Assembly: GCA_964531335.1 (NCBI GenBank)
Contig: CAZHEV010000008.1
Location: 68,452-132,451, forward strand
Source of the DNA: an uncultured bacterium
GTDB lineage: Bacteria; Eisenbacteria; RBG-16-71-46; CAZHEV01
Reading direction: 5' to 3'
DNA: 64,000 bases
Both the position numbers and the translations under genes were made by a program. Shown piece after piece: positions 8,310 to 46,817 of the stretch. How positions within the stretch are numbered: the stretch's first letter is position 1; every line of letters starts with the position of its first letter. The notes beneath the pieces are model-generated. The model had not been told where the DNA came from. It did no database searches and saw nothing but the letters and a program-made list of their open reading frames with translations.

Positions 8310-10547
8310 CTAGCCCACCACGATCTTCGCATCCACTATCTTGCAGAAGTCCTTGTCCGGGTGCGCCATGAACGGATTTATGTCCAGCTCCTTTATCTCC
8401 GGGAAATCCGTTATCAGCTGAGAGACCCTGAGCATGGCCTCCGCGATGCTCCCCTTGTGCACCGCCTTCTCCCCTCTCACCCCTTCGAGCAGCGCGCGGC
8501 CGCGAATGGAATTTATCATCTCCATGGCGTCTACGTTCGTGATGGGATGTATCCTGAACGACACGTCGCGCAGCGTCTCGACGTATATGCCGCCGAGCCC
8601 GAACATTATCAGCGGGCCTAAGGCGGGGTCCTGCGTGACGCCGATAATGACCTCCCTGCCGCTGCCGATCATGGGCTGGATGGCCACTCTCAGCGAGCTA
8701 CGGGCCTTGGGAAATGCGGTACGCATGTTCTTGAAGGCCTTCACCACGTCGTTGGCGGAACGCACGTCCTTGATCACTCCGCCGACGTCCGTCTTGTGCA
8801 TTGTCTTCGGTGAAGAGACCTTCATTACAATGGGATAACCTATCTCCTCGGCGACCTCGACCGCCTCCCCGCTGCTCGACGCCTCCTTGGTCCTGGCCAC
8901 CGGGAGGCCGTAGGCCTCGAGGACCTCCCAAACGCCCTTCGTGTCCAGAGAGCTTCCGGGCTTGCTCTTGGACAAGACTTTCGCGGCGCGGTCCTTGTCC
9001 ACCTCGAACTCCACGATGTCGCCCTGGGGCTTCTCCTTCCACGACTTGTATTTCACCATGGCGGCCAGCGAGCGGGCGGCGGACTCCGGAAAGATGTAGA
9101 AGGGAATCCGCTTCGCCTTCTCTTCCCCTCCCTCGACGCCGAGCCGCACGTTGCCCATGAAGCAGGCAAGCACCGGCTTTGTCGCGCCCCTGGTTCCTTC
9201 TATGACCGCGTCGGCTATGGCCACCGGATCGGTAATGACGGGAGAGACGAATATCGCAATCAGCGCGTCCACCTTCGGATCTTCCAAAACCAGCTTCAAG
9301 CATTTCCGGTATTGATCCGCGCCGGCGCTCGCTATCATGTCCACGGGGTTCTGAACGCTCGCCTGCGGAGGCAGAATGTCCGCCAGCTTGCGCATAGTGG
9401 ACTCGGAAAGCTCTCCCACGTTCAAGCCCAGGTTGACGCAGGCGTCCGTGGCAAGAATCCCCGGGCCCCCGGCGTTGGTGACTATCGCCACCCGATCCCC
9501 CTTGGGCAGCGGCTGGTTGGCCAGCGCGCTCGATACGTCGAACAGCTCCTCGATGGACGTTACCCGTACCACCCCGCACTGCTCGAAGAGCGAGTCGGTC
9601 GCCACCTCCCTGGAGATCAGCGCGCCGGTATGCGACGACGCCGCCCGTGCTCCGGCGTAGGTGGTGCCGGCCTTCACCGCTATGATCGGTTTTTCCCTTG
9701 ATGCCCTGCGGGCGAGCTCCTTGAAGCGGCGAGGATTGCCGAAGCTCTCGAGGTAGAGAAGGATGACCTCCGTATTCGGGTCGTCCTCCCAGTACTCCAG
9801 AAGGTCGTTGCCCGACACGTCCGCCTTGTTTCCAACGGAGGCGAAGGCCGAAAAACCGGCCTCGACCTCCTGAGCGTACTGCAAGATCGCTTCACCCAGC
9901 GCGCCGCTCTGGGACATGAAGCCGATCCTCCCGCGAAGGGCGGGCGTTCTGGCGAAGGTCGCGTTCATGGATACCGAGCTGTCGGTGTTTATCACTCCCA
10001 TGCAGTTGGGACCGACCATCCTCATGCCGTACTTGTGGACCAGATCGACCACCTTGTTCTCCAGCTCACCGCCCTGCTTGCCCGTCTCCTTGAAGCCGGC
10101 GGAGATCACGACGAGCCCCTTCACACCCTTCTTGCCGCACTCGTCCACGACCCCCGGCACCAAAGCGGCCGGGACTACGACGACCGCCATGTCCACTTCG
10201 TCGGGAACCTCGGTGACCGACGGGTAGCACTTGATGCTGTGGATAACCTCGGCCTTGGGGTTTACTGGAAAGACTTTGCCGTTGTAGTCGCCGGACACCA
10301 CGTTGTGCAGGATCTCATAGCCTATGGTGCCCTTCTTCCGCGACGCGCCGATTATCGCGATGGAGCGCGGCCTGAATATGCAATCAAGAGACCCGTTACA
10401 TTTCTTGAGCCCGGCGGCGGTTCGTCCGCCGGCCCCGGCCGCGCCCTTGGGGCGGGCGCCGCTCTTGCCGGGATCGCTCTTTTTCGAGTCGCCGCCTTCA
10501 GCCGGTCTCTCGTCCTTCTTGGTCGTTTCCTTGCCGGTCTTAGCCAT
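8310..10547 (-). CDS. acetate--CoA ligase (ADP-forming), fused alpha/beta domains (CoA-binding + succinyl-CoA-synthetase-like + ATP-grasp)
   Basis: CoA-binding N-domain (IAIIGASRKKGTIGYEIL), ligase-CoA domain and C-terminal ATP-grasp. Start set at MAKTGKE with GGAGG upstream. A further upstream ATG would add a Gly/Ala-rich leader. Confidence 0.85.
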   Translation of the reverse strand: MAKTGKETTKKDERPAEGGDSKKSDPGKSGARPKGAAGAGGRTAAGLKKCNGSLDCIFRPRSIAIIGASRKKGTIGYEILHNVVSGDYNGKVFPVNPKAEVIHSIKCYPSVTEVPDEVDMAVVVVPAALVPGVVDECGKKGVKGLVVISAGFKETGKQGGELENKVVDLVHKYGMRMVGPNCMGVINTDSSVSMNATFARTPALRGRIGFMSQSGALGEAILQYAQEVEAGFSAFASVGNKADVSGNDLLEYWEDDPNTEVILLYLESFGNPRRFKELARRASREKPIIAVKAGTTYAGARAASSHTGALISREVATDSLFEQCGVVRVTSIEELFDVSSALANQPLPKGDRVAIVTNAGGPGILATDACVNLGLNVGELSESTMRKLADILPPQASVQNPVDMIASAGADQYRKCLKLVLEDPKVDALIAIFVSPVITDPVAIADAVIEGTRGATKPVLACFMGNVRLGVEGGEEKAKRIPFYIFPESAARSLAAMVKYKSWKEKPQGDIVEFEVDKDRAAKVLSKSKPGSSLDTKGVWEVLEAYGLPVARTKEASSSGEAVEVAEEIGYPIVMKVSSPKTMHKTDVGGVIKDVRSANDVVKAFKNMRTAFPKARSSLRVAIQPMIGSGREVIIGVTQDPALGPLIMFGLGGIYVETLRDVSFRIHPITNVDAMEMINSIRGRALLEGVRGEKAVHKGSIAEAMLRVSQLITDFPEIKELDINPFMAHPDKDFCKIVDAKIVVG

Positions 10548-10676
10548 TCTTCCCTCACCGCCTCCCGACTGTTTCTCCGTATTCGCGGCGCCCGCGTCCG
10601 CGCGACCGCCACCCCCCGAGCGTATCTTTCGACGGCGATTATAGCCTGCCAAGCCTCAACTTGCCAGAGACGATGC

Positions 10677-13013
10677 TCACCGGTCCGAGGCCTGGGCCCA
10701 GCGGGACTCCCAGGGCGTCTCCAGCTCGAGGACGCCGAGCTTGGCCCGGACCACTATCTCCCCCAGGGAGGCGAGGGCCTCCTGGGACGAGGGTCTCAGC
10801 CTGAACGCCTCCCAGAAGTGGACGGCCGCACCGGCGGGCCTCCCGAATTGATAATCGCTCCTGCCCAGCCACATCCGCGAATCGTAGCTGCCTCGGTCCC
10901 GCCGCATGCTCTCCATCGCCCGCGCCCAATTGGCCAAGCGGCGCGCACGCTCCAGCGCCGGATCGATCTCCAGGGCGGCCAGCGCCGCATCGAGCGCTGC
11001 CGCGTAGTCTCCCTCCCTTGCCATGAGGGAGGCCATGGCCAGCCGCGGAGCCGCCGCCTCCGGATATATCGCCAGGGCCTCCTGCAAGATCTCACGCGCG
11101 CGGTCCGTTCGCTCGCGCGCGACGTAGAAGTCCGCCAGCTCCGCCAAAGCTCCGGGCCCGGCCGCGCCCTTCTCTCGAGCGATCTCCGTCCTCGCCGCCT
11201 CCATGGCGGCTATCGCCTCCTCACCCGCCCCTTTATCCACGGCGGCCGCGAGCGCGTCGCTCGCCTCTGCGTACCTACCGCTCTCCAGCAGCCACCATCC
11301 GGCCGTGTACATGACGTTTCCGCCGCGGCGGGCGGAGGCCGCAGCCGCCTCCCGGGCATGCTCCAGCGCCTCCTCCAAACGGGCCGATTTCTTGAGCGCC
11401 CCCGCCAGCCGGATCTTTCCGATCACAGAGTCGGGCTCCGCGGCGGCGGCGCGCGCGAAGTCCTCCACGTCGAGCTCGTAGACGTACCAAGTGTAGCCCA
11501 GGGTCAGGGACGGCTCGAAGGGGTCGAGCCACCTGTAGGCGGTGTCATCGCCCCTGAATATTCCTCTCAATGAGTTCACATTCACGGCTATCGTTCCCAC
11601 CGACGGAGAGTAGGCGCCGGGGTTGACCAAGACGGTGTCCCCGCGCGTCGATATGAAGGACGAGAGCATGCCGTCGTCCTGCCCCCAATCGACGTTCGAG
11701 TCTATCAGATATCTCGGCCCTCCCCTCGGGCCGCCCGCCGCCTCGTTGAAGTACGCCAGGTAGTGGGGATGCACTTGGAGAGAGCCCCAGGCGTACCACA
11801 GGGCGCCCGCGCCCAATAGCACGAGCCGGGGACCCCTTCCCCTGATAAGCCGCGCCGCCGCGGCCGAGGCGATCACCGCGGCGAAGGGATAGAACAGCAG
11901 GACGTGGCGGACTCCAATGTTTACGCCCGTCCAGGCCATTGCCACCAGGTATACCACAAGCGGGAGAAAGACGAAGAGCGCGTCCACCTTTCTGCGGGTC
12001 CACCCGCCCAGGACGATCGAGGCCGCGAAGAGCGCGAGCAGCGGGACAGGCGTCTTGACCGCCAGGGCTACCGGAAAGTAGTACCACCAGCCCCCCATTG
12101 ATCGCCTCCCCGCCAGATAGGCGAAGTGCCCCCCGGTCGAGTGCCGCAGCTTGCCCAGGGTGCCTTCCACGAACAGGTCGGGCAGAACAGATGAGTCCGC
12201 CATCTCGATCGCGGACTCACCCTCGGGCTCGGCCGGGGGCTGACCCGGCGCAGCGCCTCCTCCGGCCCGGACGGCCCCGCCGCCGGTCTCGGAAGAGCCC
12301 GCTCCGGATCCCACCGGCAGATGATAGACGATGTTCGACAGAGCGACCGTGCACCCGAGCATGAAGGCCAGGGCGAGCGCGCCCCTCGCGAGGCGCTTGA
12401 ACGTGGGGCCGGAGCGACAGACGGATACAAGCAGCAGGGCACAGAAGACGGGAAGAACCAGCAAGGCGGTGAACTTGCTGAGCAGCGCCGCCGTCATCGC
12501 CAGGCACGACGCCACCCAGTAACGGGCGCCGCCTGCCCGGTAGGACTTCCAGAGCAGGAAGAAAGCGGCAAACAAGAAGGCCGTCACTCCCAGGTCGAGC
12601 GTTGCGAGCCCGGAGTGCGCTATCACGTTCGGTTCGAAGCAGTACAGGAAGAGAGCGGCCGTTCCCGCCGCGGCCCCCAGCATGGCCCCGGCCCACGCGT
12701 AGACGAGGAGGGCGAGCGCCAGAGAGAGCGCAAGGACCGGCAGGCGGGCCGCCCAGAGCCCGTCGTCGGAGAAAGGAGAATAGCCCAGCTCTCCCAGGGC
12801 AAGCGGCGCCGCGACCAGGAGCTGCATCAATGGCGGGTTGTTGACGCCGCCGCTGAAGACACCGGTCTGCCAGTAGATGTATCCCGAAGGGAGATGAGCC
12901 CCGTGCTCGTCGCACACCCCCGACTTGGAAAGGATCGGCGGCACCGTCTGCGCCGCGAGGGCGGCGAGCAATAGAATGACCGCTGAATACCTTATCGCCT
13001 TTTCGCCTCTCAC
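10677..13013 (-). CDS. GT39/GT83-like (PMT/ArnT-type) polytopic membrane glycosyltransferase with C-terminal TPR repeats
   Basis: N-terminal multi-TM region like dolichyl-phosphate-mannose/undecaprenyl-phosphate glycosyltransferases. C-terminal TPR helical repeats. Confidence 0.75.
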   Translation of the reverse strand: MRGEKAIRYSAVILLLAALAAQTVPPILSKSGVCDEHGAHLPSGYIYWQTGVFSGGVNNPPLMQLLVAAPLALGELGYSPFSDDGLWAARLPVLALSLALALLVYAWAGAMLGAAAGTAALFLYCFEPNVIAHSGLATLDLGVTAFLFAAFFLLWKSYRAGGARYWVASCLAMTAALLSKFTALLVLPVFCALLLVSVCRSGPTFKRLARGALALAFMLGCTVALSNIVYHLPVGSGAGSSETGGGAVRAGGGAAPGQPPAEPEGESAIEMADSSVLPDLFVEGTLGKLRHSTGGHFAYLAGRRSMGGWWYYFPVALAVKTPVPLLALFAASIVLGGWTRRKVDALFVFLPLVVYLVAMAWTGVNIGVRHVLLFYPFAAVIASAAAARLIRGRGPRLVLLGAGALWYAWGSLQVHPHYLAYFNEAAGGPRGGPRYLIDSNVDWGQDDGMLSSFISTRGDTVLVNPGAYSPSVGTIAVNVNSLRGIFRGDDTAYRWLDPFEPSLTLGYTWYVYELDVEDFARAAAAEPDSVIGKIRLAGALKKSARLEEALEHAREAAAASARRGGNVMYTAGWWLLESGRYAEASDALAAAVDKGAGEEAIAAMEAARTEIAREKGAAGPGALAELADFYVARERTDRAREILQEALAIYPEAAAPRLAMASLMAREGDYAAALDAALAALEIDPALERARRLANWARAMESMRRDRGSYDSRMWLGRSDYQFGRPAGAAVHFWEAFRLRPSSQEALASLGEIVVRAKLGVLELETPWESRWAQASDR

Positions 13014-15133
13014 CGCCCGCTTCCCGCCGTGCCGGCTCCGGCCTCTTTCAGTTGATCGAGCAAGGACTTTACTCTGGCGTCCGAGGAATCCGACATCGCC
13101 GCCGAGCGCGCCTCGGCCAGGGCCTCCTCCAGCCGGCCCAGCACCACCAAGACCCTGGCCTTGGCCAGCCTGGCGTCCACGGAGCCGGGCGATATCGACA
13201 GAGCCCTGTCGAAATGATCGAGCGACTCCTCGTACTCGCCGCCGAGGGCCCTTGCTCTTCCGAGACTCATTGACGAGACCGCTATCTCTTTCCTGTTGCG
13301 CCCGAGCTCCAGAGCCCTCGTGTACACGGCGGCGGCCTCGCCGACCTTTCCCTCATCGACAAGGACGTCCCCGAGCCCCATCGCGGCCTCCCAGTAGTAA
13401 GGATCCGCCTCCAGGGCTTTGCGGTACGCGTCCGCGGCGCGGTCCGGCTCGCCGGAGCGGCTCACGCACAGTCCGAGGTTGTACCAGGACTTCGCGTACA
13501 ACGGCTCGGCCCGCGCGGCCTGTTCGAAGAGCGGGGCCGCCTGCGCGAACGCCCCGCGCCCCGCGAGCAGCACCCCCCACTGAAACAGCGGATCGGGGTC
13601 GCCCGGATTGTTCCGGGCCGCGCGCTCGAACATGGTCAGGGCCTCTTCGGTGGCCCCCTCGCGCCTGAGGATCATGGCCAGCTCGAACTCGGGACGGGAA
13701 TACTTTATGTCCGCTATACCGTACGCATCCACGTTCACCGCGACAGCTCCGAGGGCGGCCACCGACAGATAAGCCGCCGCGGACGCCTTGCGCCGGGAGA
13801 CCATGGCGGCCAGCGAAACCGCGGCGTAGCCGGCGAATATGCAAAGGACCGGAACGGATGTCATCCTGTATCGCGCGCAAACGAAAAACGCGACGGTGGC
13901 GATCACCTGCGAGAACAGGAAAAGGGCCGGAAGCCCCAGCGCGGCCCGGCGGCGGATCGCAAGCGCCATCCCCGCAAGAGCGAAAGGGGCGACCCACCTG
14001 AAGGACACAAGCGGATAGGCCATGAGCGGCGATTCCTCCGCCACGTGCGCGAAGGAGACGTTCCGCTCTATCTCGTGCCCGTTCCAGAAGAGCGCGAGCT
14101 TCTTGAAGAGAAGGCCCAGGTAATCGCCCGTGTTAGACGAGATGTAATCCCAGGCCTTGTCGTAGTAGTACCTCGACCATCCCGCCGGGTCCGTCGTCCT
14201 ATCGGCCTCGGGCTCCGCGGTAAGAAGATCCCACCGTATCCCGGGCCTTATTCCCACCGTACGGTCATAGTCGCCGTTGTTGCCCAGGTAGAAGTTGATT
14301 CCTCCGTTGTAGCTTATGGGGACGAATGACCCGCTTCTCACATAGTTCATGTACGTCACGGAGGCTACGGGCGCGAGCGCGCACGCGAGAAACAACCCGG
14401 CCGCCCCGTACGCCCCTAAGCGCCCCGTCCCGGTGAAGTGGCGCTTGCTCTCCGCCCTTCCGCGCTTGGAGCGACCCTCCCCGTCCGCCGTTCCGGGCTT
14501 TCGGGTTCCACGCCCCGGCGTCCTCGCCCGCCTGAGCATTAAGATCGCCCACAACAACGCCGCCGGGGCAAATACCAGGACCGTCGGCCGCGCGACCGCG
14601 GCAAGCCCCAGGAGAAGCCCGGACGCCCCCCATCGCCGGCGCCCGCCCTTCTCCGCAGCCTCGAGCAGCAGCGTCAGGGACGCCAGGGACAGGAACACGG
14701 CGAGAGAAGGGCGAAGTATCTCGGTGTCGAAGTGAACGGACATCGAGTACAGAGCGTACATGCAGCCCGCGGCGAATGCGGCCGCCCTGCCCGAGCAACG
14801 GCGCCCGATGAGATAGACCAGGATCGCGGAAGCGGATCCCAGGACGGCCTGGACGAGCCTGACCGCCAGCAGGTCATGCCCGAAGATCCTGTAGATGGCC
14901 GATAGAAAAAGAGGATACAGCGGGGCCTGGTAGAACGCGCCCTGCTCCGGCCAGGTCCCGCGCGCAAAGGCGGTGGCCCTGGTGTCGAAGTCGACGCTGT
15001 CCACGAGCAGATGGTCGAAAAACGGGCTGTCGCTCATCCACAGGATATGCAGGGTTCTGGCGCACAACGCCAGCGCGAAGACCGCCGCCGCCGCCATGTC
15101 GATCCGCAATCGAGCTTCCGCCGCCGATCCCAT
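13010..15133 (-). CDS. GT39/GT83-like (PMT/ArnT-type) membrane glycosyltransferase with C-terminal TPR repeats (paralog of downstream gene)
   Basis: Same architecture as 10677..13013. Its stop overlaps the next gene's start by 4 nt (ATGA), suggesting translational coupling. Confidence 0.75.
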   Translation of the reverse strand: MGSAAEARLRIDMAAAAVFALALCARTLHILWMSDSPFFDHLLVDSVDFDTRATAFARGTWPEQGAFYQAPLYPLFLSAIYRIFGHDLLAVRLVQAVLGSASAILVYLIGRRCSGRAAAFAAGCMYALYSMSVHFDTEILRPSLAVFLSLASLTLLLEAAEKGGRRRWGASGLLLGLAAVARPTVLVFAPAALLWAILMLRRARTPGRGTRKPGTADGEGRSKRGRAESKRHFTGTGRLGAYGAAGLFLACALAPVASVTYMNYVRSGSFVPISYNGGINFYLGNNGDYDRTVGIRPGIRWDLLTAEPEADRTTDPAGWSRYYYDKAWDYISSNTGDYLGLLFKKLALFWNGHEIERNVSFAHVAEESPLMAYPLVSFRWVAPFALAGMALAIRRRAALGLPALFLFSQVIATVAFFVCARYRMTSVPVLCIFAGYAAVSLAAMVSRRKASAAAYLSVAALGAVAVNVDAYGIADIKYSRPEFELAMILRREGATEEALTMFERAARNNPGDPDPLFQWGVLLAGRGAFAQAAPLFEQAARAEPLYAKSWYNLGLCVSRSGEPDRAADAYRKALEADPYYWEAAMGLGDVLVDEGKVGEAAAVYTRALELGRNRKEIAVSSMSLGRARALGGEYEESLDHFDRALSISPGSVDARLAKARVLVVLGRLEEALAEARSAAMSDSSDARVKSLLDQLKEAGAGTAGSGR

Positions 15134-15248
15134 ATATGCGTGCCCCGCCCGCGGCGCAACGCCGGTTGACAGGCGCGCCCCTTACGTGCTAAGTTGTTAG
15201 TAAGCGTGACGTTCAGGCAATCACCGTTACATCCGCCCCCAAGACCAC

Positions 15249-18035
15249 ATGAAGACTCTTTCCATACTTTTCCTGAACGCCCTGATGCTCTCTCTTGCCG
15301 CGTGGCCTTCCCAAGCTCAGTTCATCACCTATGGGAAGAACAAGGTGCAGTATACCCGTTTCGACTGGGAGGTACTAGAGGGCGGCCAAGTGGATCTCTA
15401 CTATTACACGGAAGAGGCGGAGCTTGGGAAAATCGCCCTGGAGACGGCCGAGAGCTGGATAACGTACCTTGAGCAGGTCTTCGGCCATCGTCTCTCCGAG
15501 AGAGTGCCCCTGATCATCTTCAGCTCACACCATCATTTCGAGCAGACCAACGTCAGCCCGTACTTTCTCCCCGAGGGCGTAGCGGGAATGACCGAGCACA
15601 TGAAAGGGCGGGTGGTCGTGCCGTTCAACGGGTCGCTCGCGGACTTCAAGCGCACCATACGCCACGAGCTCGTGCACGTGTTTCAACTTTCCGCCATGGA
15701 GGAGGTCTACAGAAGACACCCCACCTCGGACATGCCCATGCTCCCGCTGTGGTTCACCGAGGGACTGGCGGACTACCTGCCGGAGCATTGGAGCACGGAC
15801 GCCGACATGGTGGTCAGGGATCTCGTGACTTCGAACATGCTGCCGCCGATGAGGCACTTGGACCGTCTGGGCTTCAGCTACGTAACCTACAAGGCGGGAC
15901 AATCCGCCGTCGGATACCTGATAGAGAACCACGGCATCGACAAGATCGCCCTGATATACCGGGACATGTGGAAAGGCCGGAACCTGACGGAGATACTCGA
16001 TCGGGCCTGCGGAATCAACATAGACAAGATGGGCGAGAAGTGGGCCTACGGGCTGAAGCTGAAGTACTTCCCCGAGTTCAAGGACTACGGGAGCTTCCTC
16101 CCCTGTTGCTCCGTCCGATCGTCGGACTACTACTGCTTCAAGCCGAGGCTCGTGGAGGGGGCCGGACAGGACTCCCTCAGTATCGTTTACATCTCATTGG
16201 ATACAGGCTACACCACGATACGCAAGAAGAGCCTGGGGAGAGAAGACCACGACGCCCGGACCATACTGCAAGGTCAGAGGAAGGCGCAGTTCGAGTCGCT
16301 CCACCCCTTCAGCAGCCGCATGGATGTGTCCGCCGACGGGCTTCTCGCCTTCGTCTCCAAACACGGGGAGACGGACGCTCTCTTCGTGCACGATCTGGAC
16401 GGCGGCGAGATCCTGGGAAGCGATCGTTTCAGCGGCCTGGTATCCCTGTCTTCGCCGAGCTGGTCACCGGACGGAACGGACGTCGCCTTCTCGGCGATGT
16501 CCGTGGACGGAAAGTCGGACCTCTACGTCTTCGACCGGCAGGCGGGTGATCTGGACAGGCTGACCAACGACTGGTACTTGGACTCGGACCCCGCGTGGTC
16601 TCCCGACGGGAGATGGATAGCCTTCTCCTCGGATCGCACGCACTACGGATCGGATGGGGCGATGAACCTGTTCCTGTTCGATATGGAGTCTAGAGAGATC
16701 CTCTTTCTAACCAGCGGGCCTTGGAAGGACCAGAGCCCGACGTGGTCCCCGGACGGCGACAGAGTGCTGTTCACGTCCGACCGCGAGGGCATCTACAACA
16801 TCTACAGCGCGGATCTCCGGGGATACGGGCGCCGCGAGACCTGTTTCGTGGGCGCCGCCATGGACCCCCAGTGGGGGCCGGGCGAGAACGAGGTAACCTT
16901 CGTCGGCTACAACCAGGGCACTTTCAGGATCTACACCGCGGAGATGGCCCCGAGCGCCTCCAGCGCTTTCGCCCTCGACGCCCCGCCCAGCGAAGCCACG
17001 TGGAGCCCCGAGAGCTCCATCGCCACGGTGGCATACAACGCGGAGGACTACGAGCCCAGCTACGGATTGGATTTCGCTCAGGGAGGCGTGCTCGTCGATC
17101 CTACGCTGGGCGCGGGTCAAGGGCTCCAGTTCGTTATGAGCGACATGATGGGAGACAGGATTCTAGTCCTGCAATTCAGCAATACCGCGCAAACGACCGA
17201 CGAGCTGCTCTCCCACTTCAACGTGGCCGTGGTCCGTTTCAACCTGGGGAACCGGGTAAACTACGGCTACGGCGGCTTCCACCTGGTCGGCGATTTCTAC
17301 GACGAGGCCGGCTTTCCTTTCTTCGAACGGCGCATCGGAGGCGAGTTCATCGCGAGATACCCGTTCTCGAGATACGCGAGAATGGAGGCGTCCGCCGCGC
17401 TGTATCACTCCACGAAGGAAGAGCTGGCGAGAGAGCGCAAGGGATTGATGCTCCAGAACAGCTTCTCCCTGACCCGCGACACTTCCCTCTGGTTGATGAC
17501 GGGCCCCATAGACGGAGAACGCTATTACCTCTCGCTCGGTGTCGCCACCGACTTGTCCAGCGGGACGGCCGAGAACGTGGCCGCGGTCCTGGACCTGCGC
17601 AAGTACCTCAGAGTCGGTCTGCGGTCCGCCTACGCGGTGAGGTTCCTAGGGGAGATGAGCTACGGCTCCGATCCCTACCGTTTCTCCCTCGGAGGACCGT
17701 TCTCCCTGAGGGGTTACCCGCGTTTCGCCCTCACCGGCACCAGGGCTCTTCTGTTGTCTCAGGAGCTGCGGTTTCCCATGATACGGAGGTTCGCGCTCAG
17801 CACGCCCCTCGGCGGGCTTGAGTTTCCGAGCCTGCAAGGTGTAATCTTCTTTGACGCCGCGACGGCATGGGTTTCCGACGATGAGGTCCTCGATCCGTTC
17901 GGGAGTTTCGGGATCGGTCTGCGCCTTGCCCTCGGCCCCTTCGCGGCGATCAAGCTGGATATCGCGAAGCTCACTGATTTCGAGATGGTACAGAAGGAAA
18001 TGGAAGTTGACATATCCCTGGGTTGGAACTTCTAG
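15249..18035 (+). CDS. large exported fusion protein: N-terminal HEXXH zincin-like (peptidase MA-like) domain + TolB-like PD40 beta-propeller repeats + C-terminal Omp85/surface-antigen beta-barrel
   Basis: Signal peptide. IRHELVHVF then FTEGLADY (HExxH plus downstream E). Multiple WSPDG/PD40 repeats. The C-terminus (FDAATAW...GIGLRLALGPFAAIKLDIA...) resembles the bacterial surface antigen (BamA/TamA) barrel terminus. Confidence 0.8.
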   Translation: MKTLSILFLNALMLSLAAWPSQAQFITYGKNKVQYTRFDWEVLEGGQVDLYYYTEEAELGKIALETAESWITYLEQVFGHRLSERVPLIIFSSHHHFEQTNVSPYFLPEGVAGMTEHMKGRVVVPFNGSLADFKRTIRHELVHVFQLSAMEEVYRRHPTSDMPMLPLWFTEGLADYLPEHWSTDADMVVRDLVTSNMLPPMRHLDRLGFSYVTYKAGQSAVGYLIENHGIDKIALIYRDMWKGRNLTEILDRACGINIDKMGEKWAYGLKLKYFPEFKDYGSFLPCCSVRSSDYYCFKPRLVEGAGQDSLSIVYISLDTGYTTIRKKSLGREDHDARTILQGQRKAQFESLHPFSSRMDVSADGLLAFVSKHGETDALFVHDLDGGEILGSDRFSGLVSLSSPSWSPDGTDVAFSAMSVDGKSDLYVFDRQAGDLDRLTNDWYLDSDPAWSPDGRWIAFSSDRTHYGSDGAMNLFLFDMESREILFLTSGPWKDQSPTWSPDGDRVLFTSDREGIYNIYSADLRGYGRRETCFVGAAMDPQWGPGENEVTFVGYNQGTFRIYTAEMAPSASSAFALDAPPSEATWSPESSIATVAYNAEDYEPSYGLDFAQGGVLVDPTLGAGQGLQFVMSDMMGDRILVLQFSNTAQTTDELLSHFNVAVVRFNLGNRVNYGYGGFHLVGDFYDEAGFPFFERRIGGEFIARYPFSRYARMEASAALYHSTKEELARERKGLMLQNSFSLTRDTSLWLMTGPIDGERYYLSLGVATDLSSGTAENVAAVLDLRKYLRVGLRSAYAVRFLGEMSYGSDPYRFSLGGPFSLRGYPRFALTGTRALLLSQELRFPMIRRFALSTPLGGLEFPSLQGVIFFDAATAWVSDDEVLDPFGSFGIGLRLALGPFAAIKLDIAKLTDFEMVQKEMEVDISLGWNF

Positions 18036-19194
18036 CGGGCGCAAGAAGGTTAACGGAGAGACAGCCGCTTCCCTTGCGGTCCTGATTGCGGTTTTGGCCC
18101 TGATCCTGTACTTCGGCGGATGCTCCGGATCGACCATCGGATATACCTACTCCTCGGCCTCGTGGCCCACGCAGGGCGGTGACGTTCAAAGGACGGGAGC
18201 GCTCGGAGCCGAGGCGCATCCTCCATTCTTCCTGAAGTGGAAGGCCGACGCCGGGCTGGCGCCCGTGGGGCACCTGGCCGTTCTAGAGGACGCGATCGCC
18301 GGGTGTTTCCTGCGGCGCACCGTGGCGCTGTACGCTCTGGACTCGGGAAGGACGCTCTGGCGGAGGAACCTGCGAACCGATCCTTCCTCCGGCCCTTCGG
18401 CGTCGGACGGACTCATGTATCTATCAACCGATATACCTGAAGGCAGGATCCAGTGCCTGCACATCAAGGACGGCAAGACGCTTTGGTGGTCCGAGACGGG
18501 CGAGACCGACGGCGCCCCCACCGCCGCCAACGGGTTCGTGTACGCATGCGCCAGGAACGGGCGCTTGCTCCGGCTCGGCCCGCGGGACGGGAAGATACAC
18601 TGGAGAAGCCGCGTAGCACAGCTCGGGGGGGCCTCCCCCGCGGTTGTCTCCGACATCGGGGTGGTCACGACTCTGGGGGACAGCGTGGTGGCGTTCCGCC
18701 CGGACACCGGAGAGACGAGCTGGCGCTACCAGGCGGGCTCGGCGCAGTTCGGCAGTGCCGCCGTCAAGGGCGGGCGCTGTTACCTCTCTGCAAACGAGGG
18801 GTTAGCCGTCTGCCTGGAGCTCGAATCCGGAAAAGAGATCTGGCGCAGGCCCCTGGGAGGCAGGAGCATGTCGAGTCCGGCCGTCCGCGAGGGCAGCGTC
18901 TACTTCACGGACCTGTCCGGGCGACTGAGCTGCTTCGACGCGGCTACCGGGGAGACGACCTGGGAGACGGCCGAAGACGCGCCGTTGAGAGCCGGACCCG
19001 CCGTGACCTCGTACTATGTCTATACCGCCGGAATGGGCGGAAGGGTTTCCTGCTACGACAGGGAGACCGGCGAGCCTCTCTGGACACAGGTCATGGAAGA
19101 ATCGTTCGAAACCCCTCCCGTCATCGCGGAGATGTATCTGGTCGTAGTCTCCTCCGAGGGTACCATCTATTGCTTCAAGGAAGAGATCCGCTGA
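18007..19194 (+). CDS. PQQ-like beta-propeller repeat lipoprotein (BamB-like fold)
   Basis: Probable TTG start overlapping the upstream stop by about 29 nt, with AAGGAA upstream. N-terminal KK then hydrophobic stretch and GGC lipobox-like motif. Repeated G.LWR/W motifs typical of PQQ propellers. Start uncertain. Confidence 0.65.
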   Translation: MTYPWVGTSSGRKKVNGETAASLAVLIAVLALILYFGGCSGSTIGYTYSSASWPTQGGDVQRTGALGAEAHPPFFLKWKADAGLAPVGHLAVLEDAIAGCFLRRTVALYALDSGRTLWRRNLRTDPSSGPSASDGLMYLSTDIPEGRIQCLHIKDGKTLWWSETGETDGAPTAANGFVYACARNGRLLRLGPRDGKIHWRSRVAQLGGASPAVVSDIGVVTTLGDSVVAFRPDTGETSWRYQAGSAQFGSAAVKGGRCYLSANEGLAVCLELESGKEIWRRPLGGRSMSSPAVREGSVYFTDLSGRLSCFDAATGETTWETAEDAPLRAGPAVTSYYVYTAGMGGRVSCYDRETGEPLWTQVMEESFETPPVIAEMYLVVVSSEGTIYCFKEEIR

Positions 19195-20036
19195 CGGCGC
19201 TTCTCGCGGCGGTCCTCGTCGCGGCCTCCGCGTCCCCCGCGGCCGCCGCCGGGGACGCTCCCAACCTCCGGGAATCCTCCGGAGGGAGCGCCTACGGTTA
19301 CATCTCGGTAACATGCGGCGACCATCGCATGTTCGTCACCCTGGACCGCGGTGCTCCAAGGGAATGCCCCATAGACAGCGCCCGCGTCGATCCTGGATAC
19401 CACGTCCTTCGCGCATGGCCGGCCGCGGGCCGCAGGTTCACGGCCGTCTCTTTGAAGCGCGAGGTCTATGTAGGCGGCGGCGTCGAAACAAAAGTGGATC
19501 TCTCCGAGGCACGATGGGTGCGCATAGAGACCGACCCCTTCGGGGCCACCGTCTTGCGCGGGAGCGCGCCCCTGGGCGAGACACCTATCACGGTGGTAGT
19601 GTGCCCCGGCGATCCGCCGCTGACCATAGAGCGCGAGGGTTACAGGATGGTTTTTCTGACGTCCGAATCCGTCCTGAGCGGTCCCTCGCCGAGAAGGGTG
19701 ACCCTGGAGCCGGCCGATCGCGGAGCGGCCTCCACGATAGTGCAAACGGCCGGGGCCGATAAAGGAGGCCGGTCCGGTTGGACCACGCTTCTCACCGGCG
19801 TTACCGTGGTCGGTTCGGCCACCGCCGCCGTCGTATTCAAGAAGCAGGCCGATGACGCATTCGACGAGTATCGAACCACCGGTGACCCAGAGGAGATGAG
19901 GGATCTCTTTGACAGGGCCGAGAGCCTCGACAGTTGGTCCGTCGCGAGCTGGATCGTGAGCGAGGTGGCCCTGGGAGTGCTGTTGTACCGGCTTCTCCAC
20001 GAAGAGGAGAGCGAGAGGAAGGTGGGAAGCCCATGA
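19170..20036 (+). CDS. PEGA-domain protein with C-terminal TM helix
   Basis: Only the 3' two-thirds of track ORF 18453..20036 is taken. TTG/CTG start region overlaps the upstream stop. Signal-like N-terminus, PEGA-like beta segments (YISVTCGD..., ETPITVVVCPGDPPLTIEREGY) and a TM helix near the C-terminus. Start uncertain. Confidence 0.55.
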   Translation: MLQGRDPLTALLAAVLVAASASPAAAAGDAPNLRESSGGSAYGYISVTCGDHRMFVTLDRGAPRECPIDSARVDPGYHVLRAWPAAGRRFTAVSLKREVYVGGGVETKVDLSEARWVRIETDPFGATVLRGSAPLGETPITVVVCPGDPPLTIEREGYRMVFLTSESVLSGPSPRRVTLEPADRGAASTIVQTAGADKGGRSGWTTLLTGVTVVGSATAAVVFKKQADDAFDEYRTTGDPEEMRDLFDRAESLDSWSVASWIVSEVALGVLLYRLLHEEESERKVGSP

Positions 20037-21268
20037 GACCCTTGGCCTTGGTCGCCGCGTTGATGGCAGCGGTCATCGCCGGCGGTTGCGACACAAGGGC
20101 GCCGAACAATCCCTTCGACCCGCGCAATCCCGAGACCGGCGGCAGGCCGAATTTTCTGACGGCCGTCGCCCGAAACGGCTTCGCCGACCTGCGATGGCAG
20201 GACGGCGGCATGCGGGACATCGAGAGCTTCAGCGTTCACAGGGGCACCGATCCCGACACGCTGGAGATGGTGGCCGCCCTGCCCGCGGTACGGCGGACGC
20301 TCCGTGACGGAGGCCTGGCGCCCGGCGTCACCTACTACTACGCGATCGGATTCAACTTCGAAGGAGGCGGGCCGCTTCTGACAGCCCCGGTGCCGGCCAC
20401 GCCCGGCCCCGACGTCCCTTGGGCGCTTGACTCGGCGAGCTCCCCCCTCGTTCTTCTCAGCGCCGACGGCCGCGCCGCCGTATCACGATACGGCGAAGGA
20501 CACGACTTCATCGATCTGTCGGTCGAGTCGTCGTCGTCTTGGGCCTGGTGCGTCGACGCGGCGGCGGGCGTTCTCGTGGCGTACGACGAAGACGGAGCCC
20601 TTCGGGCCGTCCTCGACGACTTCGCCTTTCCGACGCGGGTCTCGGCCGATCCCCGGGACGGCGGCGTATGGATAGTGTCTTACGACGCCGGCACCTTGAC
20701 GCGCGTTGACGTCCGCTTCACCAGAGAGGTGGTAGACGACACGCTCAGCGGGCCGCTCGATGTCGAGGCGGCCCCGACCGGCGGATGCTGGGTGTCCGAC
20801 GACCTCGGACAGATACACAGATATTACCCTTCGGGCTCCAGGACCACCGTCGCCGGCCTTTCGTGGCCGGCGGCGCTTTCCGACGTCGGCCGAGAGGAGG
20901 TCTGGGCCGCCGACCCCGTCGCCCGCGAGGCGGTGCGCGTGTCCCCGGAAGGCGTTCTCGCGCGCACCGGCGGTCTCGACGGACCGTTCGACGTAGCAGC
21001 CCTCCCCCAGGGCGGATGCTGGATAGCGGACCGAAAACGAGTGCTGAAGGTCGACCGCGACGGAGAGGTCCTTCTGACCGTGGGTGGATTCGATGGAGCG
21101 AGAGCGGTGAGCTTCAACCCCAGGACCGGGGAATGCTGGGTGGCCGATCCGCCGGCCGACAAGATAGTGCGAATCGACGCGGAGGGGGAGCGCGTCGTCG
21201 AGATGGAGCAGCTTGTCTCGCCCTTCGCGATAGCCGGCCGATGGAGCGGCACCCCCACCTCCCGCTGA
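20033..21268 (+). CDS. lipoprotein with FN3-like domain and NHL/six-bladed beta-propeller repeats
   Basis: The ATG overlaps the upstream stop (ATGA). Lipobox AGGC. Repeated GGCW(V/I)(S/A)D motifs typical of NHL-type propellers. Confidence 0.7.
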   Translation: MRPLALVAALMAAVIAGGCDTRAPNNPFDPRNPETGGRPNFLTAVARNGFADLRWQDGGMRDIESFSVHRGTDPDTLEMVAALPAVRRTLRDGGLAPGVTYYYAIGFNFEGGGPLLTAPVPATPGPDVPWALDSASSPLVLLSADGRAAVSRYGEGHDFIDLSVESSSSWAWCVDAAAGVLVAYDEDGALRAVLDDFAFPTRVSADPRDGGVWIVSYDAGTLTRVDVRFTREVVDDTLSGPLDVEAAPTGGCWVSDDLGQIHRYYPSGSRTTVAGLSWPAALSDVGREEVWAADPVAREAVRVSPEGVLARTGGLDGPFDVAALPQGGCWIADRKRVLKVDRDGEVLLTVGGFDGARAVSFNPRTGECWVADPPADKIVRIDAEGERVVEMEQLVSPFAIAGRWSGTPTSR

Positions 21269-21435: not shown

Positions 21436-22182
21436 ATGGCACAACTAGACTATCCCACAAGCGGTGCGGGAGAGGAAGGAGTTGAGGAAGCGGGCTTCTT
21501 CACCAGGTGGATGTGGGTATACTTCAGCCCGCGTAAAGCTTTCACCGCCGTGTCGCGGCGCCCGAGATGGGTCGTGCCCTTCGTGCTGCTCATCGTCCTG
21601 TCAGCGGCGATGGCCCACGTGACCGCCCCTATCAACAGGGAGCACATGGCCCAGAGAATAGAGAACAGCGACTCCATCCCGGAGGAACAGAAGGACCAGG
21701 TGCTCGAAAGGATGGCGGGCGGTGGTTCCACCATCAGCCAGTTGGTGAGAATCGGGGGAAGCGCGGTGGTTATAGCGGTAATGCTCTCCGCCCTGGGCGG
21801 GATCTTCCTCCTGATCAACAACATGATTTTCGGGGGAAGCGCGCGCTACGCCCAGACGTTGGGGGCGGCGGTTTACACCTGCCTGATATGGATACCGTCA
21901 TGGATAGTCAAAGTGCCGCTCATGTTCGCCCAGAATACGGTGAACGTCACCATAGGGCCCGCCGCGTTCTTGCCGGCCGAGGCCGAGGGCGGCTTTCTGT
22001 GGGCGGCCCTCACCAGGCTGGACGTCTTCGGCATCTGGCATATAATTCTCGCGTGCATAGCGCTTTCCTGCATCGGAGGGTACTCGGCGAAGAAGGCGTC
22101 CGCGGCCGTGATCCCTCTGTGGCTCATCTACTCGGTTATCGTCACGGTATTTACATGGTTCGGCTACAAACAGCTTGGATAG
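21436..22182 (+). CDS. Yip1-domain membrane protein
   Basis: AAAGGAGG RBS. Five predicted TM helices, with a Yip1-like N-terminal cytosolic segment. Confidence 0.7.
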   Translation: MAQLDYPTSGAGEEGVEEAGFFTRWMWVYFSPRKAFTAVSRRPRWVVPFVLLIVLSAAMAHVTAPINREHMAQRIENSDSIPEEQKDQVLERMAGGGSTISQLVRIGGSAVVIAVMLSALGGIFLLINNMIFGGSARYAQTLGAAVYTCLIWIPSWIVKVPLMFAQNTVNVTIGPAAFLPAEAEGGFLWAALTRLDVFGIWHIILACIALSCIGGYSAKKASAAVIPLWLIYSVIVTVFTWFGYKQLG

Positions 22183-26607: not shown

Positions 26608-27531
26608 ATGGCTGACAAGAAAAAGCAGTCCGAACCGATCGCGGTGACTCCAAGCGGCATTCTCCTCGGAACAATCACCTCGTTCGCGTTCGGCGCGAGC
26701 GTCGTGACGAACAAGGCCGGCCTGGACAGCAGCGGTCTCACGGCGCTGGACTACACCGCCCTGAGCGCGCTCGCCGCGGCGGTCATCGCTTTTCCCTTCC
26801 TCCTGCCGCGCGTACTCCGGATCGTGTCCTGCTCCAAGACCTGCCTCGTCAAGGTCCTCGTCATAGCCGTGGGCGCGTCGGGGATCGCGTACCTCCTGCT
26901 CTTTTACGGGCAAAGCCTCACCAGCGCGACAAACGCGGGCTTCATGCTTACGCTCACCGCGTTCTTCACCGTGGTTTTCGCCGCGGCCTTGATCGGCGAG
27001 CGGATCGAGAAGCGCAGGTATCCCGCGATAGGGCTCCTCTTCATCGGACTCTATCTGCTCATAGTCGGAGTTGATAAGATAAAGCTCAACGCCGGAGATC
27101 TCTTCATAGCCGGGACCGCGTTCATATGGGGTTTCACAAACAGCATCGCCCGATCGGTGATGCGCGAGATACCCGCCCAAATCGTGGCGTTGATCAGGCT
27201 CTTCATCGGCGGCCTCTTCCTGGCGGCCGTGTTGCGGGCCGGCCCGGGCTTGGCCGCTGCCACGGTATCATCCGGGGACTACTGGTTTCTGCTCTCCGGC
27301 CTGCTGGGCTTCGCCTCCATATTGCTCTTTTACAGGACCATAGGCGTGTTGGGCGCGGGAATGGCGTCGCTGGTGGTGGTGTCGTCGCCCATCTTTTCGA
27401 CGCTGGGCGCCGTGGTTTTCCTTGGGGAGAGGCTGGCGGCAGAGGATCTGGTAGGCGGCGCGCTGGTTCTGGTTGCCCTTGTCGGAATTACGGGCGCGCT
27501 GGAGCGCGTCAGCCGATCCGCTCGAGAGTGA
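26608..27531 (+). CDS. DMT-superfamily (EamA-like) transporter
   Basis: Ten predicted TM helices in a two-repeat EamA arrangement. Confidence 0.8.
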   Translation: MADKKKQSEPIAVTPSGILLGTITSFAFGASVVTNKAGLDSSGLTALDYTALSALAAAVIAFPFLLPRVLRIVSCSKTCLVKVLVIAVGASGIAYLLLFYGQSLTSATNAGFMLTLTAFFTVVFAAALIGERIEKRRYPAIGLLFIGLYLLIVGVDKIKLNAGDLFIAGTAFIWGFTNSIARSVMREIPAQIVALIRLFIGGLFLAAVLRAGPGLAAATVSSGDYWFLLSGLLGFASILLFYRTIGVLGAGMASLVVVSSPIFSTLGAVVFLGERLAAEDLVGGALVLVALVGITGALERVSRSARE

Positions 27532-33100: not shown

Positions 33101-33447
33101 ACCCAGACCGTGAGCGGGTTGTTGGGGTCGAGCGTGATACACCCTATGGAGTAGCTGCCCTGGTCGTCGAAGATGGGCTCCCACGTCGTACCACGGTTTT
33201 CCGTCTTCCACACGTTTCCGGAGCAGACGGCCACGTAGTACTCCCACGGTTTCTCGGGATTGACGGCGAAGTCACCTATCCGGCCCGATGTCGCGGCGGG
33301 CCCCAAGCACCTGAGCTTGAGACCCGAAAAAGTGCCGGAGCTCATCGGCCCCTTGTCCCCGCCGTCTTCCTCCCCTTGCCCGTAAGCCGGTCCGGCCCCG
33401 GCAAAGATCAATAGCGTCACCAACGATATCGCCGCCAACCGCCTCAT
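30157..33447 (-). CDS. BNR/Asp-box repeat protein, sortilin/VPS10-like (xyloglucanase-type) beta-propeller tandem, exported
   Basis: Signal peptide. Many SxDGGxTW Asp-box repeats (SLDGGKTWK, TSDGGETWD, STDAGASWK, STDGGANWR, THDGGKTFE, and others). 1096 aa. Confidence 0.8.
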   Translation of the reverse strand: MRRLAAISLVTLLIFAGAGPAYGQGEEDGGDKGPMSSGTFSGLKLRCLGPAATSGRIGDFAVNPEKPWEYYVAVCSGNVWKTENRGTTWEPIFDDQGSYSIGCITLDPNNPLTVWVGTGENNSQRSVSYGDGVYKSLDGGKTWKNMGLKESEHIGMIAVDPRDSDVVYVAAQGPLWRAGGDRGLYKTSDGGETWDLALEISEDTGVNEVHMDPRDPDVLYASSYQRRRRVWTLIDGGPESAIYKSTDAGASWKKLTNGIPGVDKGKIGLAVSPANPDVIYAIIEAAQDEQGFFRSTDGGANWRKMSDYLSSSPQYYNEIFADPKNVDRVYSMDTFMRVTHDGGKTFERVGINYKHVDDHALWIDPENTDHLLAGCDGGIYETYDRGATWDFKSNLPVTQFYRVSVDYDRPFYNVYGGTQDNNSLGAPSRTISASGIINADWVITLGGDGYETQVDPTNSNIVYSQFQYGGLARYDKAAGEALMIRPQPGKDEPAIRWNWNSPLLLSPHSPTRLYYAGNILFRTDDRGNSWEAVSPDLTRQVDRNQLEVMGIIQSVDAVAKNMSTSYYGNCVALTESPMQEGLIYVGTDDGLIQVTEDGGENWRKIEKVKGVPQYTYVSELTASRHKAGTVFAAFDNRKNGDFKPYAFKSTDMGRGWTSITGDLPERGTVFAIEQDHVDPSLLFAGTEFGVYFTYDAGAHWVELTGGFPTIVAKDLDIQRRENDLAVGTFGRGIYILDDYTPLRFMDEERLRQEAVLFPVKKTYLYHESTPLGGKEKANRGDNFYFAPNPPYGAVFTYYLKETLKTKEQMRREKEKIALEEGERIEYPSWEELRLEDREEEPAIIFTIRDSDGDVVRRITGPVGKGIHRVAWDLRYPSSRPATTTPWVRRTPWSTPPRGPMVAPGTYTVSMAKRVEGEVTPMGEPQSFEAVPIGLATLPADDWGELVEFQKETGALQRAVLGAIKLADEAQSRIDHIKVAVRDAPEGDQSWIDEARSLELRLADLRMELQGDPTIRKRQEPTPPSITERVSEIVYGSWESTSSPTQTNRESLRIAEESFEPVLEELTRLVEEDLRALEEKLENAGAPYTPGRVPRLK

Positions 33448-33471
33448 TTGCCAATCCTCCTTAGGTTAGTC

Positions 33472-35193: not shown

Positions 35194-35265
35194 GACGTTC
35201 TCCTCCTGCTCAACCCACCCACGTTACGCTGCCGGCCACGCCGCGCAGCTCAGGGAAGCGACGGA

Positions 35266-35961: not shown

Positions 35962-36012
35962 CTCAACTCCGAATTTCCAGGGAACGCGGCCTCGATCGGA
36001 ACGTACGGCGGC

Positions 36013-46718: not shown

Positions 46719-46817
46719 CCAACCGCCTCCATTCAATTGATCGCCCGCTCTCAACTCGACCGGACCTGCGCAACATCCGGGGCCGGCACAATGCGGCTCC
46801 GCGGCGACTTCAGGGCC

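Follow-up and report, generated by a model that had tools for sequence, protein, structure and literature searches.

The stretch of DNA analysed here (termed the window; 64,000 nucleotides, nt) originates from an uncultured bacterium of the Eisenbacteria (GenBank assembly GCA_964531335.1, contig CAZHEV010000008.1, positions 68,452 to 132,451 of the forward strand). Four plus-strand genes of this window (genes 1 to 4) encode a three-part zinc-peptidase/propeller/Omp85 protein of 928 amino acids (aa), a BamB-like PQQ-propeller lipoprotein, a PEGA-domain membrane protein and an NHL-propeller lipoprotein. Gene 1 is an ordinary member of the 'WD40-like Omp85' cluster, which is catalogued and experimentally unstudied, and the neighbourhood of Omp85, PQQ and PEGA genes is conserved across phyla, in loci labelled as several phyla of the Fibrobacteres-Chlorobi-Bacteroidetes (FCB) group. 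With a confidence slightly short of even, the four genes are interpreted as encoding an outer-membrane-anchored periplasmic zinc-peptidase complex around the WD40-like Omp85 protein, perhaps for quality control of envelope proteins.

The domain composition of gene 1 was determined by profile searches and structure prediction. Pfam identified PD40 repeats (80 bits) and Omp85 (PF01103; 30.2 bits at a gathering score of 24) at residues 810-925, the latter match covering the C-terminal third of the Pfam model. The NCBIfam search gave only sub-threshold matches to TolB, Omp85 and BamA, and no dedicated family was found there. An AlphaFold2 model built on 45 homologs (predicted local distance difference test, pLDDT, 83; predicted template modelling score, pTM, 0.79) consisted of an alpha/beta N-domain at residues 40-280, a propeller and then a large barrel up to the C-terminal Phe. 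When this model was compared with the PDB using Foldseek, TolB was retrieved first (E value 3e-13), followed by the barrels of Fusobacterium BamA (2e-10) and of E. coli BamA in BAM-EspP complexes (about 2e-9; BAM, beta-barrel assembly machinery). The propeller region comprised about 24 strands at residues 287-575, which were read as six four-stranded blades. TolB is likewise a six-bladed PD40 propeller and the best structural match to gene 1; it differs in that it is soluble, resides in the periplasm and carries an N-terminal domain of its own, and the propeller alone is shared (TIGR02800, 132.5 bits against an equivalog cut-off of 343). Propeller and barrel are joined by a linker of about 30 residues, and helices were absent from residues 575-625 of the model. 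No POTRA domain was detected in gene 1 by Pfam, nor was a beta-alpha-alpha-beta-beta unit present between propeller and barrel in the model. The gene product is a secreted protein in which the N-terminal 550 residues (gluzincin plus propeller) take the place where POTRA domains are usually found. The original prediction of a 928-aa protein built of three parts was thus borne out by Pfam, AlphaFold2 and Foldseek, and structure prediction recovered both of the folds on which it hinged, the zincin and the Omp85 barrel.

The N-terminal domain carries an HELVH motif, a downstream Glu (E171) as third zinc ligand and a candidate catalytic Tyr214 in a Y-K-x-G context that resembles the catalytic Tyr of M1 peptidases. 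H139, E140, H143, E171, G172 and Y214, which include the zinc ligands and the catalytic Glu, were invariant in 45 homologs (40-79% identity), where the third ligand lies in a WxxEGxA consensus. A set of 31 sequences that represents about ten groups of phylum level likewise showed no variation at the residues of this domain. The Pfam family Peptidase_MA_2 (PF13485) matched over 195 of 201 profile positions with 31.0 bits, at a gathering cut-off of 32.4. When the N-domain was modelled alone (pLDDT 83), only gluzincins were found among the 50 listed Foldseek matches, with E values of 2e-4 to 2e-3, a probability of about 1.0 and template modelling scores of 0.45-0.5. These were M1 enzymes (tricorn-interacting factor F3, LTA4 hydrolase, IRAP, ERAP1/2 and aminopeptidase N) together with one M61 and one M9 enzyme. 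In a profile search against the PDB, the N-domain matched the Vibrio M9 collagenase at its EGxAEY motif (E value 0.0016). With HExxH, a downstream Glu ligand and a thermolysin-like fold, the domain is a gluzincin of clan MA(E).

In family M1, the third-ligand Glu is located 18 residues after the second His, and GxMEN serves as exopeptidase motif. E171 of gene 1 sits 27 residues past the second His of HExxH. Pfam Peptidase_M1 gave no match on gene 1, and GxMEN is absent, an invariant PEGVxGxTE being found instead. Gene 1 shares with the M1 aminopeptidases (factor F3, aminopeptidase N, ERAP, LTA4H) the thermolysin-like fold, HExxH, the Glu in xEGxxxY and the Tyr in Y-K-x-G, but it has the catalytic domain only; judged by this, the Glu spacing and PEGVxGxTE, its zincin appears to lie outside family M1 proper. 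The window contains a 729-aa M1-family peptidase of its own at 27509-29698 (minus strand), in which PTGLGMPSY, not of the GxMEN type, faces PEGVAGMTE of gene 1 in an hhalign alignment. The profile alignment between the two was weak (E value 0.13) and paired HELVH with HEIAH, WFTEGLADY with NWCEGLTTY, and Y214 with the YGK of the M1-like peptidase.

The C-terminal third of gene 1 is an Omp85 barrel with lid-lock motifs. A profile of the barrel retrieved TamA (E value 3e-5), BamA (6e-5) and Toc75 from the PDB, in alignments that pass through the RGY and FxDxG motifs; both lid-lock motifs align to TamA in this search. Every one of the 49 PDB matches of the profile was a BamA, TamA or Toc75 chain, or a chain of Omp85 type named 'outer membrane protein and surface antigen'. 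The family consensus of the FxDxG-type motif is FxDAG, and the window protein ends in Ala there. The C-terminal residue of the barrel is Phe. The BamA equivalog TIGR03303 scored 15.1 bits on gene 1 against a cut-off of 297, and its five POTRA domains are lacking. Among the open reading frames scanned in the window, no canonical BamA was detected.

The Omp85/TpsB superfamily was split by Heinz and Lithgow (2014; PMC4104836) into ten clusters, one of which is 'WD40-Omp85', in a classification that admits non-POTRA N-termini as separate clusters. Architectures of PF01103 plus PF07676 are given for the WD40-like cluster in Table S2 of that work. Table S3 reports, for the members examined, a BamA or TamA barrel, TolB and a 'best aminopeptidase hit' (1z5h, 4kxd, 3qnf); these aminopeptidase matches include tricorn factor F3 and ERAP1, and the listed members include H1XQ58 and D0MEQ5. 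Gene 1 has the same three parts and no structural difference from this cluster, and Caldithrix occurs both in the published list and among the related loci found here. The original prediction had regarded the system as not described, which does not apply to the architecture. Its statement that no protein of this architecture has been characterised agrees with Hanson et al. (2024; PMC11116518), who continue to count the WD40-like subfamily as one of those 'not well characterized'. A term search returned no mention of WD40-like Omp85 proteins in a 2026 BAM review or in a 2025 preprint on the Bacteroidota BAM complex. The text on this cluster in PMC4104836 mentions neither partner genes nor invariant catalytic residues. 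In a limited literature search, no previous description was encountered of the operon that combines a BamB-like lipoprotein with a PEGA membrane protein across phyla, of the lineage-specific NHL and cyclophilin partners described below, or of the joint invariance of catalytic and lid-lock residues.

The subfamily is large. The window is 100% identical to a Logan assembly of SRR7048218 and to an NCBI contig of 175 kb. Word-indexed searching turned up more than 120 relatives of full length (about 930 aa); the named ones carry the label 'BamA/TamA family outer membrane protein' and belong mainly to Candidatus Eisenbacteria, which also provided the nearest named relatives (43-44% identity). When one genome of each GTDB species was scanned for the pattern, a relative was detected in at least 492 genomes, and the proteins fall into hundreds of 50%-identity clusters. 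The 80 closest genome matches were labelled almost entirely as FCB-group phyla (Eisenbacteria, Zixibacteria, Ignavibacteria, Bacteroidota, Gemmatimonadota, Calditrichota, KSB1, Latescibacterota and Glassbacteria). A search with the N-domain yielded 2759 cluster representatives at E values up to 1e-3 and 422 at E values up to 1e-30. As nearly all of these matches sit at the N-terminus of 910-1100-aa proteins, where the N-domain begins at residues ~25-50, and the shorter ones resemble fragments, the zincin-PD40-Omp85 architecture is apparently stable and widespread.

Conservation of the gene neighbourhood was assessed with hidden Markov models (HMMs) of the neighbouring genes, which were searched against six-frame translations of 82 non-redundant loci. 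Partner counts were taken over loci with enough downstream sequence. The HMM counts were used, since searching by tblastn with the proteins of the window lacked the sensitivity needed to find PEGA, NHL and GT-C glycosyltransferase genes. A PQQ gene was adjacent in 52 of 73 loci, in 48 of them co-directionally and in four, all of Gemmatimonadota, convergently; the spacing of co-directional pairs typically ranged from a 28-nt overlap up to a 200-nt gap. A PEGA gene followed in 33 of 64 loci, namely in all loci labelled Eisenbacteria (12/12), Latescibacterota (2/2), Calditrichota (3/3) and KSB1 (1/1), in some labelled Bacteroidota (6/9) and Ignavibacteria (8/18) and in one of two unlabelled loci, and in none labelled Zixibacteria (0/3) or Gemmatimonadota (0/14). 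The NHL gene was present in 12 of 59 loci, only in Eisenbacteria (10/11) and Latescibacterota (2/2). In the Eisenbacteria genome GCA_018831195.1, PQQ and PEGA are fused in one 640-aa protein (L002:12964-14886), a Rosetta-stone link between window genes 2 and 3. The plus-strand genes thus co-occur in related genomes across phyla, as the original prediction would require. Its further assumption of one co-translated four-component machine is upheld as far as a packed operon and a multi-component envelope complex are concerned, on the strength of synteny and the PQQ-PEGA fusion; this does not extend to the glycosyltransferase pair that it had added.

Chance packing of unrelated envelope genes in a compact genome might produce a similar picture, given that overlapping starts are common in genomes of high G+C content and that the accessory genes differ between phyla. 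This explanation is regarded as extremely improbable: the PQQ gene is adjacent in the said 52 of 73 species-level loci of many phyla, among which gene 1 is only 35-45% identical, and the PQQ-PEGA fusion is present in one lineage.

In four loci of Gemmatimonadota, a gene for a HEAT-repeat plus cyclophilin prolyl isomerase protein (~700 aa) was located directly upstream, with a 4-nt overlap with the Omp85 start. Two small lipoproteins (~240 and ~160 aa, no Pfam match) are encoded downstream in these loci in place of PQQ and PEGA. The coupled cyclophilin ties the zincin-PD40-Omp85 family to periplasmic protein folding, which fits a theme of folding or quality control. Conserved genes for PtsI, PGI and a polyprenyl synthetase, seen upstream in loci of Ignavibacteria and Bacteroidota, were attributed to housekeeping synteny and not taken as partners, and 760-aa HEAT proteins near some loci were dismissed as partners since they have no signal peptides.

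A separate observation was made in the Eisenbacteria subgroup in which the PQQ gene is missing. There, a second PD40/Tricorn-like protein of 1040-1410 aa is encoded a few genes downstream of the Omp85 gene (L006:6621-10862, L007:12985-16149 and L088:12191-15316); the copies of L006 and L007 cluster by BLAST with gene 1.

The partner proteins were analysed individually. Gene 2 matched PQQ_2 with 171 bits in Pfam, and its best NCBIfam match was BamB (TIGR03300), with 160.9 bits below the cut-off of 285. The signal peptide ends in FGGC, and 35 of 43 homologs have a Cys that resembles that of a lipobox. Gene 3 matched PEGA with 34.7 bits and has hydrophobic segments at residues 205-223 and 258-276. 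Its C-terminal module comprises a hydrophobic helix, a loop of the pattern YFKxQADxxYDxY...D and a second hydrophobic helix at the extreme C-terminus, and K224 and D254 of the loop were invariant in an alignment of 20 sequences; from this pattern the module is read as a probable membrane hairpin. The original prediction had likewise named a PQQ-propeller lipoprotein and a PEGA-domain membrane protein. Gene 4 had been called an FN3 plus NHL lipoprotein. The lipoprotein and the propeller were recovered, the latter by profile matches to the NHL propellers Pizza6 and PknD (E values 1e-48 and 1e-19), whereas the ~100-aa domain between motif and propeller, which would correspond to FN3, gave no database match. 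The motif in question, C-x2-R-x3-NPxDP (residues 19-30, window 20087-20122), is invariant, follows directly at the lipid-modified Cys and could be a sorting signal or a propeller-docking peptide.

All six open reading frames of the original prediction are present at the positions it had assigned (Table 1). Its ATGA overlap between genes 3 and 4 was read directly from the sequence at 20033-20036. A second overlap of this type had been claimed at 19170/19194; there, gene 3 begins at TTG 19170 and overlaps gene 2 by 25 nt. The stop of gene 1 is overlapped by the start of the PQQ gene as claimed, by 29 nt, and with TTG 18007 as start codon this junction is not of the ATGA type either. The same TTG start is used in an independent gene call on the matching public contig. 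For gene 3, ATG 19329 is the sole downstream alternative; it would drop the signal peptide and truncate the first PEGA domain by its first strand. TTG 19170 was preferred because 20 homologs can be aligned over this PEGA domain. The four plus-strand genes form a tightly packed operon, and two of the three overlaps depend on TTG starts. The operon is separated from the divergent minus-strand unit by an intergenic gap of 115 nt (15134-15248), in which a promoter scan found no promoter. A TTGACA-N17-TAAGTT sequence spotted by eye at ~15166 fails the scan criteria, and no promoter is claimed. A scan for terminators 3' of gene 4 was likewise negative. A gene for a Yip1-domain membrane protein (21436-22182, plus strand) starts 167 nt beyond gene 4, and an aspartate/ornithine carbamoyltransferase gene is next; the sequence that separates the two from gene 4 contained no terminator-like site.

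Table 1. Coordinates of the genes, domains and motifs considered in this study (window positions, unless a locus is named).
Feature	Position	Strand	Size or residues	Description or evidence
Gene 1	15249..18035	+	928 aa	Signal peptide, M1-like gluzincin domain, PD40/TolB-like propeller, Omp85 barrel
Zincin (gluzincin, M1-like) catalytic domain	15360..16094	+	aa ~38-282	Conservation, Foldseek
HELVH motif	15663-15677	+	aa 139-143	Sequence
Third zinc ligand E171 in WFTEGLADY	15759-15761 (E171)	+	aa 168-176	Sequence
Six-bladed PD40 (TolB-like) beta-propeller	16107..16973	+	aa ~287-575	Pfam, AlphaFold2, Foldseek
Omp85-type beta-barrel	17037..18035	+	aa ~597-928	PF01103, PDB profile, Foldseek
Loop-6 LRGY motif	17706-17717	+	aa 820-823	R821 invariant (45 homologs)
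FxDxG-type motif FFDAA	17847-17861	+	aa 867-871	D869 invariant (45 homologs)
Gene 2	18007..19194	+	395 aa	BamB-like PQQ beta-propeller, probable lipoprotein (...LYFGGC)
Gene 3	19170..20036	+	288 aa	Signal peptide, two PEGA domains, C-terminal pair of hydrophobic helices
Gene 4	20033..21268	+	411 aa	Lipoprotein (...IAGGC), ~100-aa middle domain, NHL-type six-blade propeller
First GT-C gene	13010..15133	-	707 aa	PMT_2/PMT and C-terminal TPR; divergent from gene 1
Second GT-C gene	10677..13013	-	778 aa	PMT_2 and TPR; start overlaps stop of first GT-C gene by 4 nt
HEAT plus cyclophilin genes	L028:5764-7923, L030:1956-4010, L057:3059-5137, L068:5093-7246			Signal peptide in three of four

In the peptidase complex tentatively proposed here, the barrel of gene 1 would sit in the outer membrane, and peptidase and propeller would lie in the periplasm, as suggested by the analogy to PlpD. 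To our knowledge, every Omp85 protein studied so far has its N-terminal part in the periplasm. The N-domains of gene 1 were placed in the periplasm because this holds for the studied proteins, the enzyme domain of PlpD included. In tricorn, DPP-IV and prolyl oligopeptidase, a propeller restricts the access to the active site to unfolded chains, and the propeller of gene 1 may limit access to its peptidase in the same way. The BamB-like and NHL lipoproteins would dock on the periplasmic peptidase and propeller domains, and the PEGA protein would tie the complex to a membrane via its helical hairpin. At the outer membrane, the complex could then trim or remove envelope proteins that are unfolded or stalled, in functional analogy to BepA at BAM.

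Several points weigh against this interpretation. For the peptidase, the Peptidase_MA_2 match is just below the Pfam cut-off, and both the PDB profile match (E value 0.0016) and the alignment to the M1-like peptidase of the window (E value 0.13) are weak. For the barrel, 17 long strands were assigned by DSSP at residues 606-926 of the model, and 16 would be obtained only if the strand after RGY is attributed to loop 6. The 16-strand assignment would put FxDxG on strand 13, which is its place in BamA and FhaC. The orientation of the active site toward the propeller, the closure of the barrel and the exact strand count are presumptive. The conserved lid-lock motifs suggest a role of the barrel beyond that of a mere anchor, and a simple tethered protease would leave them unexplained. 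As to the partners, four Eisenbacteria loci have no PQQ gene and show the order Omp85, PEGA, NHL, and most Gemmatimonadota carry different neighbours around the Omp85 gene. No experiment on any WD40-like Omp85 member is found in the literature (PMC11116518).

The closest studied analogue is PlpD, a patatin-like Omp85 protein of Pseudomonas aeruginosa, which also combines an Omp85 barrel with an N-terminal hydrolase. PlpD differs from gene 1 in that the enzyme is a lipase and not a zinc peptidase; it has one POTRA domain and forms homodimers, and neither a propeller nor operon partners have been described for it. Among the Omp85 proteins studied, it is the one in which an enzyme takes the position of additional POTRA domains. 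The barrel plus N-terminal hydrolase layout of PlpD was once read as type Vd secretion (PMC4104836). A comparable reading for gene 1 would be a self-exporting, type V-like surface protease, in which the barrel translocates zincin and propeller to the cell surface, external proteins are degraded there for nutrition and the lipoproteins act as surface partners. The lid-lock motifs, of which translocating TpsB proteins make use, are indeed conserved, and genes for type IX secretion cargo occur in related loci. This reading is nevertheless considered quite unlikely: the PlpD enzyme domain has since been shown to stay periplasmic (PMC11116518), about 550 residues of folded zincin and propeller would have to traverse the barrel with a linker of only the stated length, and BamB-type lipoproteins are periplasmic partners in Proteobacteria. 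The secretion or surface-layer (S-layer) role suggested in the original prediction was not substantiated, as nothing points to it and PlpD, the nearest studied analogue, keeps its enzyme domain in the periplasm (PMC11116518).

The E. coli BAM complex with BamB and BepA resembles the operon in three respects: its barrel bears the loop-6 RGY and FxDxG motifs, one partner is a lipoprotein with a propeller of the BamB/PQQ_2 type, and a zinc metalloprotease is involved. BepA is a zinc protease of family M48 that works at the BAM complex, an Omp85 machine (PMC13067283). In gene 1, by comparison, POTRA domains are missing, and the protease is fused to the barrel and M1-like instead of M48. Gene 2 stays under the BamB cut-off (161 against 285 bits), and no BamD-like partner was seen. 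A specialised assembly factor for beta-barrel proteins or lipoproteins, BamA/TamA-like with propellers for POTRA domains and with dedicated substrates that the zincin only matures, was weighed as an alternative, an idea already suggested in PMC4104836. The conservation of the lid-lock motifs and the terminal Phe, the proximity of the barrel to TamA and BamA, the conserved BamB-like partner and the coupled cyclophilin folding catalyst of Gemmatimonadota agree with it. It is judged unlikely in view of the lack of POTRA, the substrate binder in characterised insertases, the low score for the BamA equivalog (15 bits against 297) and the invariant full catalytic set, which points to a central role of proteolysis.

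As an extension of the quality-control interpretation, gene 1 and its relatives might represent a third functional class of Omp85, a 'proteolytic Omp85' widespread in the FCB group and distinct from insertases (BamA, TamA, Sam50) and translocases (TpsB, Toc75). All characterised Omp85 proteins known to us insert or translocate other proteins. In a proteolytic Omp85, an intact lid-lock/lateral-gate barrel would engage envelope proteins that are unfolded or stalled and pass them to the M1-like peptidase that is fused to it and gated by the propeller. The subunits would be a lipoprotein of BamB-like type and a PEGA protein anchored in a membrane, joined in some phyla by an NHL lipoprotein or a cyclophilin. 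The existence of such a class is regarded as doubtful.

The relevance of these findings lies in the family. PlpD recently showed that the Omp85 superfamily also holds barrel-tethered periplasmic enzymes, and in the WD40-like subfamily both the catalytic site and the Omp85 motifs are complete. The window contributes an ordinary family member and nothing new in kind. The family itself is well suited as a target for experiments, for which the partner genes (BamB-like, PEGA, NHL and the cyclophilin of Gemmatimonadota) offer handles in cultured relatives. Such work could show how bacteria other than Proteobacteria police the biogenesis of outer-membrane proteins.

The two minus-strand genes encode GT-C glycosyltransferases with TPR tails, described in the original prediction as a tandem GT39-TPR pair. 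PMT_2 or PMT and TPR domains were confirmed for both (first gene: PMT_2 62 bits, PMT 25.5 bits, many TPR matches, 9 hydrophobic segments; second gene: PMT_2 38 bits plus TPR matches), with 8-9 hydrophobic segments in each protein. The term GT39 reaches the level of Pfam PMT_2/PMT only, and similarity between the two proteins did not extend beyond the TPR tail (BLASTP, E value 0.003); on this evidence the second is not a recent duplicate of the first. NCBIfam matches to the ArnT, Agl23 and LA_3751 families were weak and non-discriminating. An acidic motif is present in the first loop (DSVDFD; CDEH). Bacterial PMT_2/ArnT-type GT-C proteins with TPR, of which PMT and TMTC are eukaryotic analogues, are alike in the multi-pass PMT_2 part, the acidic motif in the first loop and the TPR array; the linkage of the window pair to an Omp85 operon is confined to some Eisenbacteria.

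According to the original prediction, the GT-C/TPR pair and the four-gene operon would constitute one glycosylation-coupled assembly, secretion or S-layer system. The divergent pair is retained in the 69%-identical relative L087, and a single PMT_2 gene is found directly upstream and co-directional in the Eisenbacteria loci L002, L009 and L011, overlapping the Omp85 start in L002. The GT-C HMM found no gene within 8 kb of the Omp85 gene in loci labelled as other phyla or in the remaining Eisenbacteria, and the linkage is therefore lineage-limited. The two units of the window are divergent, and no S-layer or secretion component was found. A combined glycosylation machine is accordingly held to be very unlikely, and the glycosyltransferases were not retained as part of the complex; the linkage may reflect a local functional tie or merely an inherited gene order. 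The upstream genes elsewhere were those for an amidohydrolase, PtsI/PGI or HEAT proteins. Beside the pair, at 8310-10652 (minus strand), lies a gene for an ADP-forming acetyl-CoA synthetase-like protein (CoA_binding, Succ_CoA_lig, ATP-grasp_5), which is also kept in L087. Its product is not a third glycosyltransferase.

Further features were recorded outside the locus. A run of unusual genes at 30157-37422 (minus strand) codes for a Sortilin/BNR-repeat protein of 1096 aa, for a protein that joins a transglutaminase core to an NHL/Vgb-lyase-like propeller, and for a peptide-maturase-like enzyme of the radical SAM/SPASM type that carries a PqqD domain at its N-terminus. When the exact protein of 30157-33447 was looked up, no match on record was returned. 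Rfam and tRNA scans revealed nothing in the region of the operon and the GT-C genes, and a tRNA-Glu(TTC) at 39808-39884 (plus strand) was the only RNA gene found in the window. A gene for an OprB-family carbohydrate porin is located at 45579-46754 (minus strand).

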